NCBI GenBank assembly: GCA_963727585.1
Contig: CAVSHH010000008.1
Span: 6,134 to 70,133 of the forward strand
DNA: 64,000 bases
Direction of reading: 5' to 3'
DNA from: an uncultured Chloroflexia bacterium
GTDB lineage: Bacteria; Chloroflexota; Limnocylindria; Limnocylindrales; CSP1-4
Part shown: positions 6,781-10,549 of the stretch, piece after piece
Layout of the letters: each line of letters opens with the position of its first letter
Position numbering within the stretch: the stretch's first letter is position 1
Notes under the pieces: generated by a model
The model's input: the letters and a program-made list of their open reading frames with translations, nothing else
Databases searched by the model: none
Told to the model about the DNA's origin: nothing
Program-made: the position numbers and the translations under genes

Positions 6781-6857
6781 GCGCCCGTAGCTCAGTGGAC
6801 TAGAGCATCGGTCTTCGGAACCGAGTGTCGGGGGTTCGAATCCCTCCGGGCGCGCCA
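6781..6857 (+). tRNA. tRNA-Arg (anticodon TCG)
   Basis: Acceptor GCGCCCG/CGGGCGC, D-arm GCTC/GAGC, anticodon stem TCGGT/ACCGA with loop CTTCGGA, T-loop TTCGAAT, encoded CCA. Confidence 0.95.
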
Positions 6858-6874
6858 TCCCTCCGGGCGCGCCA
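6858..6874 (+). repeat. Tandem duplicate of the tRNA 3' end (att-like)
   Basis: tccctccgggcgcgcca at 6841-6857 repeated exactly at 6858-6874. Confidence 0.9.
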
Positions 6875-6975
6875 TTGCTCAAGTCGATCGAGGCCGGCAG
6901 CGCACGGCCGGGCACCGCCTGGACGCGTGGTCGCGACTGTTGCGGGTCACGCGTCGATAGCGGATTACTCGCGTG

Positions 6976-8271
6976 TCAGCCGACCGGGACCGAAGGCTTC
7001 GTTCGACCGAGAGCTCGCCCCGACTCGGTTTCGCGCCCGACTAGGAGATGTGCCCTAAGCCGGCCCTTGCCTTTGACCTCGATCTCGCCCCGACTCTCCA
7101 ACCGGTATCGGCCGGACAGACGGTGAGCCGTCTCGTCTGTCACCTGGATGCGACCGACAACGCCGTGCGATTCCATGCGGCTCGCCATGTTGACGGTGTC
7201 GCCCCACAGGTCGTAGAGGAATCGGTGGCGACCGATCACGCCAGCCACCACGGGGCCACTCGCGATCCCGATGCGAAGCTCGAGCCCCAGGCCCGAAGCC
7301 GCGCTCACCCGCCCGAGCGCCTCCTGCAGGTCGATGGCGAGTTCGACCACGGCCTCTGCGTGATCCGCCCGCGGCTCGGGAAGGCCGCCGACGGCCATGT
7401 ACGCGTCGCCGATCGTCTTGATCTTCTCGAGCCCGCGGCGCCGCGTCCGCTCGTCGAACACGCTGAAGATCTCGTCAAGGATCCCGACGACGCGCTCCGG
7501 GCCGGTCCGTTCCGCGAACGGCGTGAAGTTTGCGATGTCGGCGAACAGGACAGTGACGTCCTCGTGACGGTCGGCGATGACGCCGGACGATCGCTGCAAC
7601 CGGCGGGCGATCGACTCCGGAAGGACGTTGAGCAGCAGACGGTCCGACCTCGCAAACGCCGCGTCCCGCTCGCGCACGGCGTACTGGAGCAGCAGGTACG
7701 CCGTCAGCGCCACGCCCAGGATGTTGAGCACGAAGAAGGCGACGACAATGCCGCTAGGGATCGGCGCCGGTGAGGTTGACAGGTACGGGTCCAGGAAGCC
7801 GGAGATGACGGTCAGGATGACGAAGGTCGCGAACCAGGGGATGGCCTCCCGGGCGGTGTAGAAGAAGAGCGCTCCGATGGCGGCGACGAGTGCCCAGAGG
7901 CTGACGGCGCTTGAGGCGACATAGCCGCCCAGACTCCATTGGAGCAGGAACGGGAGCAGCGACATCAGGCTGATGTTGCCGAACCGGAAACGGCGGTAGT
8001 TCCCCGTCCGCGCGAAAGCGATCAGCCCGACCAGCGCGGCGATCTGGTACACGAACGGGATCGCCGCAGATATCGGGAGCCCGAGCGCCAGGTAGACCCC
8101 GACCCACACGAGGGCCAGGACCGTCACGGTCAGCGAAGCGAGCGTGAGAGAGCCCTTCTGCAATCGTTCGAGGTCGCTGTCTCCGGCGCGGAACCCGAGC
8201 GCTGCAAGCCGACCGAGCAGGCGGCGGGACGACCCGACGATCCCGGGAACCGTGTCGGGATGGGCCTCCAT
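6976..8271 (-). CDS. Membrane-bound class III adenylate cyclase (6TM plus catalytic domain)
   Basis: VLFADIANFT, EKIKTIGDAYM, LRIGIASGPVVAGVIG, YDLWGDTVNMASRME; ~6 TM helices. Confidence 0.93.
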   Translation of the reverse strand: MEAHPDTVPGIVGSSRRLLGRLAALGFRAGDSDLERLQKGSLTLASLTVTVLALVWVGVYLALGLPISAAIPFVYQIAALVGLIAFARTGNYRRFRFGNISLMSLLPFLLQWSLGGYVASSAVSLWALVAAIGALFFYTAREAIPWFATFVILTVISGFLDPYLSTSPAPIPSGIVVAFFVLNILGVALTAYLLLQYAVRERDAAFARSDRLLLNVLPESIARRLQRSSGVIADRHEDVTVLFADIANFTPFAERTGPERVVGILDEIFSVFDERTRRRGLEKIKTIGDAYMAVGGLPEPRADHAEAVVELAIDLQEALGRVSAASGLGLELRIGIASGPVVAGVIGRHRFLYDLWGDTVNMASRMESHGVVGRIQVTDETAHRLSGRYRLESRGEIEVKGKGRLRAHLLVGRETESGRALGRTKPSVPVG

Positions 8272-8406
8272 CTGCGAAGGATACTCACTGTCGGCACGCT
8301 CGAGGCGATGGGGTCGGGCCTGGGATCAGCCATGCGGCCCGGTGTTTCCCCCTGCGCGTCCGACACCCAGCGGGCGCGCAAACTGCAACGTCGGCGGACT
8401 TCGCCC

Positions 8407-8580
8407 GCCCCCGTAGACACGCACATCGTCGATGTCGTCTTTGATCTGCCGCAGGCTCGTGTAGTGCTCCACGATCCCCGGCAGGGGACGCGACGTCGAG
8501 CACGATCGGGTCGAACGTGATGAGCGACGCGTCGAGGAGCCGCTCGAGGAGCGCGAGCGTACCGGCGACGCCGGCGCGTG
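8407..8580 (-). pseudogene. Remnant resembling the C-terminus of a vanadium-dependent haloperoxidase/PAP2 protein
   Basis: LPGIVEHYTSLRQIKDDIDDVRVYGG recalls the conserved ...DARVYGGIH segment; frameshifted and lacks a start. Confidence 0.4.
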
Positions 8581-8683
8581 CGGGTCTGGCGACGTACGAC
8601 TAGCAGGGCCGGCCAGGCGCCCGAGCCTCGAGCTGCTCCGCACGCCTGTCGGACATCCGGCGCCGGTTGTTCCTGCACCGGCC

Positions 8684-10354
8684 TCAGGCGCTGGGACTCG
8701 CCCGCTGGAGCGCATAGCCGAGATCGCCCACCCGGTACCAGTGGTAGCCGTACTCCTCCATGGGGATCCGATGGCGGCCGTCGGGTCCCGGTTGGCAGAC
8801 CGTGTCGACCATCAGGTCAACGAGCTGCTCGCCCTCGGCACCCGGGATCCGCAGCCGGGCCTCGACTGGGTGGCCCACGAGGTTGTGCACGATCACCAGC
8901 CGGTTGCCGCGCCACTCGTAGGCCATGGCAAGGATGTTCGGCTGGGACGTCCTGAGGATCGACCAGTCGCCCCAGCCGATCTCCGGGCACTCCTTCCGCA
9001 ACCTGATCATCCGGGCCATCCAGTTGAGCAGCGATGCCGGGTCGCGCCGCTGGGCCTCGACGTTGACATTCTCGGTGCCGTAGACGCCGCCCCGGATCAC
9101 CGGGCGCACCAGCTGATCCGAGTCGGCCAGCGAGAAGCCGCCGCTCTGGTCCCGCGTCCATTGCATCGGGGTTCGGACGGCCTCCCGCTCGGGCAGCGAG
9201 AGGTCCTCGCCCATCCCGATCTCGTCGCCGTAGCGAAGCACGGGCGCGCCCGGCAGCGAGAACAGCAGGCTGTAGGCGAGCTCCAGCTGCCGACGATCGC
9301 CGAGCATGGAGGCCAGGCGCCGGCGGATGCCCCGGCCGTACAGCTGCATCGACGCTTCGGGCGCGAACCGGGCGAACACGGCCTCGCGCTCCTGCGGCTC
9401 CAGCCGACCGAGGTCCAGCTCGTCGTGGTTGCGCAGGAAGTGCGCCCACTGGGAGGTCTCCGGAATGTTGCGCGTCGCCCGCAGGGCCCTCGCCAGCGGC
9501 CTGGCATCACCCGTGGCGAGCCCCAGGAACAGGTGCTGGTTCACAAAGAAGTTGAACATCATGTTGACGCCGTCGGCCCCGGACCCGAAGTAGGGGCGCA
9601 TGCCCTCGGGGGGCACGTTGGCCTCGGCGAGCAGCACCGAGCTGCCGCGCCGGAACTGGGCGAACTGGCGCATCTCGGCGAGGTAGTCGAAGCGCGTCTC
9701 GGCCTCCGGGCGGTCCGGGGTCTCGGGCAGCTCGAGCACGAACGGCAGGGCGTCGATACGGAAGCCGGAAACGCCGTTGTTCAGCCAGTAGCCCATGACC
9801 TTGCGCAGCTCCGCGCGCACCTCGGGATTGGCCATGTTGAGGTCTGGCTGGAAGTCGTAGAACCGGTGGAAGTACCAGGCCCGGGCGGTCGCGTCGCGCG
9901 TCCACGTGGCCTCCTGGACTCCCGGGAACACCATCCCGGTGTCCCAGCCGGCCGGCCGCTTGGGTGACCAGACATACCACGCCCGGCGCCGGGACCCCGG
10001 GTCACTGCGGGCCTCCTGGAACCAGGGGTGCTGGTCGGAGGTGTGGTTGATGACCAGGTCGATGATGACCGCGATGCCCCGGTACGTCGCATCGTGGACG
10101 AACGCCGCGAAGTCGCCGCTGGAGCCGAGCCGCCGGTCAACGCCGTAGAAGTCCATGATGTCGTAGCCGTTGTCCCGGTTGGGAGACGGCTGGAACGGGG
10201 CCAGCCACACGGCGTCAACGCCCAGCGACTCGAGGTAGTCCAGGCGCTCGGTGAGGCCCGCGAAATCGCCGCATCCGTCGCCGGTGCCGTCGACGAACGT
10301 CTCGACGTCGAGGCTGTAGATGACGGCGTTCTTGTACCAGAGCTCGTCGATCAC
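8684..10354 (-). CDS. GH13 alpha-amylase family, trehalose synthase (TreS)-like
   Basis: WYKNAVIY, DNGYDI, DLVINHTSDQHPWF, GFRIDA, LLAEAN, FLRNHDELDL, GIRRRLA; GGAGG RBS before GTG 10354. Confidence 0.9.
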   Translation of the reverse strand: MIDELWYKNAVIYSLDVETFVDGTGDGCGDFAGLTERLDYLESLGVDAVWLAPFQPSPNRDNGYDIMDFYGVDRRLGSSGDFAAFVHDATYRGIAVIIDLVINHTSDQHPWFQEARSDPGSRRRAWYVWSPKRPAGWDTGMVFPGVQEATWTRDATARAWYFHRFYDFQPDLNMANPEVRAELRKVMGYWLNNGVSGFRIDALPFVLELPETPDRPEAETRFDYLAEMRQFAQFRRGSSVLLAEANVPPEGMRPYFGSGADGVNMMFNFFVNQHLFLGLATGDARPLARALRATRNIPETSQWAHFLRNHDELDLGRLEPQEREAVFARFAPEASMQLYGRGIRRRLASMLGDRRQLELAYSLLFSLPGAPVLRYGDEIGMGEDLSLPEREAVRTPMQWTRDQSGGFSLADSDQLVRPVIRGGVYGTENVNVEAQRRDPASLLNWMARMIRLRKECPEIGWGDWSILRTSQPNILAMAYEWRGNRLVIVHNLVGHPVEARLRIPGAEGEQLVDLMVDTVCQPGPDGRHRIPMEEYGYHWYRVGDLGYALQRASPSA

Positions 10355-10532
10355 CTGGCGGTCCTCCGTTCGCGGCGCACTTGGGGCGAGCGCACGGCGG
10401 CGGGCCGGTGCGCGGCGCCGGGAGCATCTGCCGGGGCGGCGGACAGGGGCGACGGTGCTGCGGCTCACGGCCTTACAGACCACATTCGATCCGCGACACA
10501 TGGGCTGTGTGCTCGCTCGCCGTCCACCAACG

Positions 10533-10549
10533 CCCTCCGGGCGCGCCAT
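10533..10549 (+). repeat. Third copy of the tRNA-Arg 3' end (attR-like)
   Basis: ccctccgggcgcgccat is identical to 6842-6858. Confidence 0.8.

Follow-up and report, generated by a model that had tools for sequence, protein, structure and literature searches.

A tRNA-Arg(TCG) gene in an uncultured Chloroflexia bacterium as a probable target of large serine recombinase elements and collecting point for small recombinase-free gene units

The DNA analysed here, which we call the window, is a stretch of 64,000 nucleotides from the genome of an uncultured Chloroflexia bacterium, and it contains a tRNA-Arg(TCG) gene (6781..6857, + strand, ARAGORN) behind which the tRNA's 3' end recurs between small genes. 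Directly after the gene stands a tandem 17-bp duplication of the tRNA end (6858..6875, +), an exact copy (6841-6857 = 6858-6874) without an element-side arm (its left arm matches the consensus given below at 2/12). The next copy belongs to a putative worn attachment site, site 2 (8343..8381, +), composed of an outer motif (8343-8351, 4/9), an inner arm (8354-8365, 10/12), the dinucleotide CC (8366-8367) and a tRNA-like arm (8368-8381), as judged from profile and position weight matrix (PWM) scores and from arm matches. Site 3 (10510..10549, +; CC at 10533-10534; nhmmer E 0.057 over profile columns 22-42) has an exact tRNA-side half; on its element side just six inner bases are intact (6/12) and the outer motif scores 5/9. 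The first unit delimited in this way carries a 431-aa membrane class III adenylate/guanylate cyclase (6976..8271, -; PF00211, E 7.5e-61). The second carries a TreS-like alpha-glucan enzyme of glycoside hydrolase family 13 (GH13; 8684..10354, -; 556 aa; TIGR02456, 570 bits, under the cut-off of 678), preceded by a small gene fragment beside site 2. No recombinase gene lies within 6841..10549.

The repeats are specific to this locus. In the 3,500,107 bases of the genome (95% complete), searched on both strands, the 17-mer CCCTCCGGGCGCGCCAT occurs three times (6842, 6859 and 10533), always at tRNA-Arg(TCG); one mismatch adds no copy, and base-composition arithmetic predicts about 0.01 chance copies genome-wide. 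The copy at 10533-10549 is exact in the register 6842-6858 (16 tRNA bases and the following T) and agrees with the tRNA's own last 17 nucleotides at 16/17. The copy at 8366-8381 matches the tRNA end at 13/16, and as a bare 16-mer it is at chance level (11 window matches at <=3 mismatches for 9.25 expected; 34/100 shuffles reach 11). Once its upstream arm is included, it has the second-best PWM score and the third-best hidden Markov model (HMM) score of the whole genome (nhmmer E 0.0019), values slightly inflated because it was itself one of the 39 seeds of the PWM and one of the 87 sites used to train the HMM. Because the longer profile ranks it third genome-wide, we take it to be a real, worn site and a unit boundary. 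All copies are on the + strand and intergenic, the profile (nhmmer) finds no further site past 10549, and among the other tRNAs of the genome none has a site-like 3'-end copy (<=2 mismatches) within 40 kb downstream. A first-pass annotation, made from the window alone, had described the exact tandem, the further exact 17-mer, the degenerate copy, their common orientation and intergenic position and the lack of an integrase in the array, and all of this is borne out, as is the rarity of the 17-mer in the genome. Folding of the window sites does not exceed that of shuffled sequences (z -0.4 to -1.5); with no such excess, and with the T-rich side 5' on both strands, a role of the sites as terminators or single-strand hairpins was rejected.

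The anatomy of the sites emerges from relatives, whose genomes we label G and fetched loci L, with C1-C6 for the contigs of the window's own genome; all genomes compared are metagenome bins. At the same tRNA locus, the downstream tRNA-end copies of relatives have a common arm on their 5' side, and in a first draw one to three such sites were present in the fetched stretch of 9/17 relatives with usable flanks. A site consists of a 12-bp arm (consensus GCGCGYYCRANN), CC and tRNA bases 63-76, and is mirror-symmetric about C61-C62. The 82 distal sites compared, which were chosen with a matrix covering the right half as well, agree with the tRNA in 39% and 32% of cases at the two bases preceding CC, in 100% at CC and in 95-100% after it, a step that predicts a 2-bp crossover at C61-C62 (6842-6843 in the window). 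Farther from the centre, at positions 16-24, lie mirror outer motifs, the left one TTGTTGTTC and the right one GAACAACAA. Conservation of the element-side arm stops at position 24 (42 sites, 38 unrelated upstream clusters) and that of the mirror arm at about 24-26 (92 metagenome sites, 83 unrelated clusters). Since selection used part of the motif in each set, the informative features are these sharp outer borders, the right-arm bases 8 and 9, which lay outside the search pattern and are A in 78/92 and 71/92, and the left outer motif, already visible in the consensus of the 39 seeds, which were picked without outer positions. According to PMC3783163, the attP sites of large serine recombinases (LSRs) carry a zinc-domain motif at positions 16-24, and the sites described here resemble the LI/A118 attP in their central dinucleotide, inverted inner arms and 9-bp outer motif at 16-24. 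They differ from that system in having no outer motif shifted by 5 bp in the tRNA, as modelled for the LI attB, and in the many product sites that stand in a row. The layout is thus likely that of an LSR attachment site rather than of the tyrosine-integrase type. Two site patterns searched in viral contigs gave 0 matches.

Recombinases of this class end in the sites themselves. Translated in antisense, the sites yield what looks like the tail of a protein, and in G022 this tail is the end of a resolvase-domain LSR. Used as a query, this type of LSR finds matches in 53/70 genus genomes; of the best 30 loci, 18 run into tRNA-Arg(CCG), and a single one, G069 (Resolvase E 2.6e-11), runs into tRNA-Arg(TCG). 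LSR genes that end in tRNA-Arg(TCG) are present at L067/L109, L233 and L336, and none in the window. The last two represent a second lineage, 23% identical to the first, in which L233 is named an LSR via its 59% identity to a Pfam-confirmed LSR of G006; that relative sits with a primase-like gene in a 19-kb unit at tRNA-Arg(TCG), and the L233 gene is followed by an exact mirror of the commonest left outer motif. In the autonomous elements a gene of about 60 codons and a primase/helicase gene adjoin the LSR, often with an amidase gene and a holin-like gene at the far end. Such elements stand in line with small units: a 44-kb LSR element and then a 1.1-kb unit in G069, a 19-kb element and then three closed units in G006. 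No tyrosine integrase (PF00589) was found at tRNA-Arg(TCG) in the fetched stretches of 24 relatives or in the window's own genome, whose three PF00589 genes lie elsewhere. No intact LSR was found in that genome, at its 95% completeness. The sole LSR that is not a stub (C2, about 234.5 kb) is N-terminally truncated, with no catalytic motif visible in any of three frames, and its end lies at a tRNA end of the Pro type. Across the family, relatives of the L233 LSR (L322-L358) read antisense into tRNA-Arg(CCT), tRNA-Glu(TTC) and tRNA-Arg(TCG), with a new C-terminus gained from each tRNA.

In relatives, the sites delimit rows of small units. The exact 16-mer is present in 61/70 genus genomes (reversed control pattern, 0), in up to nine copies spaced 1-5 kb apart, and the rows, drawn from loci selected partly for the presence of repeats, comprise up to five units that are mostly recombinase-free. 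The 78 closed units have a median length of 2.3 kb and 66 are <=5 kb, a count that leaves out the two large LSR-bearing units (19 kb in G006, 44 kb in G069), which are split over several loci. A single gene makes up the unit in 29/77 cases, and the cargo, on mixed strands (100 minus, 84 plus genes), is a metabolic and regulatory miscellany. A profile of the LSR C-terminus matches 6/142 TCG-type flanks, 2/88 metagenome flanks and 17/29 CCG-type flanks, the last set being biased by selection; the profile also missed one LSR-like flank (L314) recognised by eye. The named genome records with the commonest site are all Chloroflexota (40/40), presumably of the class Limnocylindria.

Several units recur at different positions in different genomes. 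A 1,480-bp unit with a single amidohydrolase gene occupies second place in the array of G064 and first place in those of G065 and G080, three species among which it is 98.1-99.5% identical, versus 90.7-93.5% for rpoB; its ends run from site to site, its left neighbours differ and its differences fall mostly on every third base. We read this comparison as direct evidence of recent cross-species transfer. Site-to-site units at changed positions were also seen between G063 and G072, G058 and G069, and G062 and G081, one unit is duplicated inside G062, and the array of G020 starts with what comes after the 9.5-kb first unit of G021; two order swaps involve units with partly lost sites. More generally, homology between relatives ends at a site in both genomes in 21/139 cases (random expectation 0.16, maximum 2 in 2000 trials) and in either genome in 40/139 (random 9.2); these counts are not probabilities, since kin are not independent. 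Finally, some pairs of records (L247/L295 and L319/L270, for example) have the same right flank directly behind the tRNA in one and behind the element-side arm in the other. The serial acquisition of small recombinase-free units proposed by the first-pass annotation agrees with this change of content at the repeats.

We propose, with a probability of roughly 80%, that sites 8343-8381 and 10510-10549 are attR sites left by successive integrations of LSR elements into tRNA-Arg(TCG), and that the blocks between them are recombinase-free units whose enzyme would be supplied in trans; small gene cassettes are probably gathered and exchanged at this spot by an enzyme that comes from elsewhere. An incoming circle would carry an attP of about 48 bp, with 12-bp inverted inner arms around CC and 9-bp outer motifs at 16-24, and its right inner arm would copy tRNA bases 63-74, so that recombination at CC would restore the tRNA and push older units outward. 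The autonomous members would be satellite-like, with an LSR, a protein of about 60 aa, a primase/helicase and sometimes an amidase and a holin-like gene. Their LSR module may be lost by deletions that reach but do not enter the essential CCA end, often after the landing of an insertion sequence (IS) of the IS481 family; a deletion that stops there would spare the distal arm and usually remove the proximal outer arm. Units stripped in this way could persist as cis-mobilisable cassettes, and some may pass from one species to another, either taken along when a neighbouring element leaves or cut out in trans. The window array itself is likely inert, because both of its sites are worn and the only LSR found has no catalytic N-terminus.

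A number of observations weigh against this proposal. The two units of the window were not met as units elsewhere, and the 29 homologue loci have no site within about 1.5 kb (loci of flagged unpublished genomes, on which none of our claims depends, were excluded here and from the circle-junction test). Site 3 retains only half of its inner arm, and the tRNA side has no shifted outer motif (positions 11-19 match at 1/9, read off the sequence). Homology ends at no site in 99/139 cases. Most units are without one outer arm, the proximal one, and keep the inner arms; within a unit, outer arms pair no better than shuffled ones (3.14 vs 3.31 of 10 in 57 units that do not involve an IS), hence most units would not rebuild a canonical attP. 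No excised-circle junction was found for 148 units; ten apparent hits were artefacts of contig starts or shared tails. Lastly, many of the named records with arrays go back to a single sequencing campaign that yielded several bins per sample, so that a chimeric join across a repeat is possible for any single pair.

Some of these points feed the strongest rival, a serious contender that we nevertheless hold to be less than an even bet, in which each unit is what remains, immobile, of its own full-size LSR island and sharing results from descent or from homologous recombination anchored on the tRNA and on neighbouring cargo. It has the same LSR origin as our proposal and differs only on later mobility. 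The general loss of the proximal outer arm, the 19/76 units that begin with an IS481 end, the many homology ends away from sites, the truncated gene beside site 2 and the plain decay, with LSR stubs, of the genome's own tRNA-Arg(CCG) array all fit it well. It accounts poorly for a single-gene unit that three species share at 98-99.5% identity, bounded by a site at either end and next to unlike left neighbours, for arms retained as precise 24-bp half-sites against unrelated DNA, and for right flanks that adjoin the tRNA in one record and the element-side arm in another.

At the opposite end of the scale of mobility, the arrays may be a serine-recombinase counterpart of the integron, a genus-to-family pool of one-to-three-gene cassettes, each with only a 24-bp half-site, traded between species; we regard this extension as tentative and rather unlikely. 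The LSRs of the satellites would insert and excise the cassettes, the tRNA 3' end would provide the second half-site and a relaxed directionality would allow product sites to recombine. Integrons are rows of small, often single-gene cassettes between related sites, with entry at one end. The arrays share this layout, and to this extent the integron-like character suggested by the first-pass annotation stands; they depart from integrons in that there is no IntI, no attC and no resident recombinase, and cargo lies on both strands with long intergenic leaders. The T-rich and A-rich outer motifs are also in the opposite order to the cores of attC.

It is improbable that all repeats of the window are footprints of tRNA-targeting IS481 elements, whose 15-17-bp duplications rebuild the tRNA end, with the cargo having entered between IS ends. 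These elements do occur at this locus in relatives. An IS481-family transposase (NF033577, 246 bits, over the cut-off) lies directly behind tRNA-Arg(TCG) in five genomes (G006, G009, G066, G073 and G082), and elements of the family stand behind tRNA 3' ends at L035:17095-18279, L039:17086-18270, L104, L112 and L124. They target the 3' ends of tRNAs for Arg, Val, Ser and Glu with 15-17-bp duplications: 33/34 left ends follow CCA plus 0-2 nt, and 13/13 right ends are followed by a copy of the tRNA end, starting at base 62 in 12/13. The right-hand outer motif, or most of it, is retained directly behind the duplication in 4/10 of the IS right ends listed. Tandem copies adjoin IS ends in G019, G066 and G082. 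Against it, IS duplications start at C62 behind an IS end, while sites 2 and 3 start at C61 behind a palindromic arm; no IS end or transposase sequence was found in 5000-14000 of the window; and no IS481 transposase was found in the genome, only left-end remnants behind tRNA-Val(TAC) and tRNA-Ser(TGA) (C3:1005682 and C3:1916728). The IS account fails for site 2, with its 10/12 inner arm, and is a good one for the tandem only, one base off register.

The tandem starts at C61, or at C62 with one extra base, and its length fits an IS481 duplication. Given the one-base offset and the lack of an IS remnant, two origins remain, and the tandem would be a scar, either the target duplication of an IS481 that has since been lost or what is left of a unit deleted between AT microhomologies. 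It is unlikely to be an empty cassette: of the partition offered by the first-pass annotation, the cyclase unit and the unit with gene remnant and TreS are retained, and the zero-length unit is better seen as a scar without an element-side arm, as in six other genomes. Those genomes (G010, G019, G062, G066, G081 and G082) have tandem repeats of 15-20 bp, and that of G062 and G081 is one tandem in common, inherited with a unit. That the window tandem alone is an assembly artefact seems to us highly improbable, because of these shared cases and of the identical junction in G010, even though no contig of three DNA runs spans it or any whole unit. At that G010 locus (L024), at least five copies of the tRNA end (17-19 bp) follow the tRNA in a run that decays outward, with the window's junction within. 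A true near-empty cassette, unlike the window tandem, is the 60-bp unit between the sites at about 4274 and 4334 of L102, barely more than two outer arms.

Tyrosine-integrase islands, the frame of the first-pass annotation, or a host XerC/D-like enzyme acting in trans, can be set aside as scarcely credible: tRNA 3' duplications are the usual mark of tyrosine-integrase islands (PMC4383910) and the genome does hold three PF00589 genes, but the fetched stretches behind tRNA-Arg(TCG) in 24 relatives contain none, identity starts at the symmetry centre as for a 2-bp crossover, and LSRs end in the site.

Among described systems, the closest are the ssrA islands of Dehalococcoides with DsiB, within the concept of cis-mobilisable elements (CIMEs) and accretion. 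In Dehalococcoides, a CcrB-like serine recombinase, DsiB, accompanies tandem islands behind one RNA gene, and 15 islands without an integration module are read as cis-mobilisable (PMC3146451). Both systems occur in Chloroflexota, with direct repeats of an RNA 3' end, each with a conserved motif just upstream, and an LSR on the reverse strand beside attL. They differ in the target, here tRNA-Arg at C61-C62 and there the transfer-messenger RNA, and in the LSR gene, which here crosses the attachment site and draws its C-terminal end from the tRNA read in antisense; instead of the six-gene dsi module we find an LSR (CcrB model E 2.7e-7), the gene for about 60 aa and the primase/helicase gene, the units are 1-5 kb, often of one gene and nearly all without an LSR, and the within-genome duplication seen in G062 is unseen in that account (PMC3146451). 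As in CIMEs, integration and transfer genes are lost, att sites are at least partly kept and later integrations at the target lead to stacking (PMC5704250); the window units, with neither recombinase nor transfer genes, hold only a cyclase gene, the gene for the GH13 enzyme and a gene fragment. Published CIMEs derive from integrative and conjugative or integrative and mobilisable elements (PMC5704250), whereas the parents here look like primase-bearing LSR satellites and just one full outer arm is retained in most units. Tycheposons (10.1101/2020.12.28.424599) and additive tRNA islands (PMC7771536, PMC5217437) are likewise tRNA-anchored islands formed by repeated integration, with partial tRNA copies, primase elements and small exchanged cassettes. 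However, 910/937 tycheposon-type elements use tyrosine recombinases (10.1101/2020.12.28.424599), and the accessible parts of these accounts define no LSR attachment site for recombinase-free cassettes (10.1101/2020.12.28.424599, PMC7771536, PMC5217437). A search made largely among freely available papers showed us no account of LSR cassette arrays at a tRNA-Arg gene of Chloroflexota, nor of an IS481 element that targets tRNA ends. What sets the present system apart is its tRNA-Arg target, an LSR gene that extends across its own attachment site, units that are small and hardly ever contain a recombinase, and the recent cross-species transfer of one of them.

A probable enzyme class, a predicted crossover and a full attachment site can now be named for a tRNA hotspot at work in shaping the accessory genome of an abundant, uncultured group of Chloroflexota. 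It becomes testable whether tRNA islets without an integrase are dead or are moved in trans, and compact pairs of LSR and att site predicted to target a conserved tRNA without breaking it are on offer. The window array is a worn example, and the weight of the result rests on the relatives.

The genome has a second array, found via the motif, at tRNA-Arg(CCG) (C1:122,400-157,618; L058, L168), with the tRNA itself split between the ends of C6 and C1. Four distal sites are spread over 35 kb, most of them followed by LSR 3' stubs, and the cargo includes a Fic protein, a toxin-antitoxin-like pair, a groES-groEL copy and a copper ATPase-like cluster, the last three named by eye. A separate island at C3:1218322-1222964 has a tyrosine integrase beside tRNA-Val(GAC) and a small resolvase 3 kb on.

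Turning to the cargo of the window, the cyclase of unit 1 has homologues of 70-76% identity in family genomes, away from such sites. The fragment beside site 2 (8389..8514, -) is a C-terminal piece only of a PAP2/vanadium haloperoxidase-like protein: the 42-aa query has no Pfam or NCBIfam match, and two matches out of 11 candidates (E 5.8e-5) are PF22778+PF01569 proteins, 70-85% identical over 62-71% of the query. Beyond the last recognisable site, a domain scan of 10663..20246 reveals more strain-variable genes, for a protein that binds cyclic nucleotides (cNMP), two cyclases, an NAD-binding DUF2867 protein, an oxidoreductase, a hydrolase and a glycosyltransferase; in G064 and G080, DNA that follows such sites matches blocks of this region at 77-87% identity, and the genes of the region are probably older accretions. 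A tRNA-Thr called by ARAGORN at 13874-13971 lies inside the DUF2867 gene, has no CCA end and is likely false. Three class III cyclase-domain genes (6976-8271, 11794-12642 and 18105-18914) and the cNMP-binding gene thus lie within 12 kb of tRNA-Arg(TCG), with a probable fourth cyclase, named by eye, at 21074-22789; cyclases are unit cargo in G015 and G068 too. Elsewhere, a unit of G078 (L100:2704-4212) carries a PF00144 gene for a putative serine hydrolase of the beta-lactamase family.

Two relatives show doubled tRNA genes. In G072 (L119), two full copies of tRNA-Arg(TCG) stand 1.36 kb apart (1926 and 3284) where G063 has an ordinary site, through either gene conversion or a merged assembly. 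G069 has two tRNA-Arg(TCG) loci (L109 and L111) whose upstream flanks are just 84% identical, which suggests a mixed bin. On the upstream side of the window's own tRNA, the conserved anchor is an M23 peptidase gene (5544..6365, -; PF01551, E 6.7e-20; start from the gene caller), which adjoins tRNA-Arg(TCG) in many genomes of the genus, and upstream of it, at 2916-5505, lie a WYL/WCX (PafBC-like) regulator gene and then an HD-domain gene.

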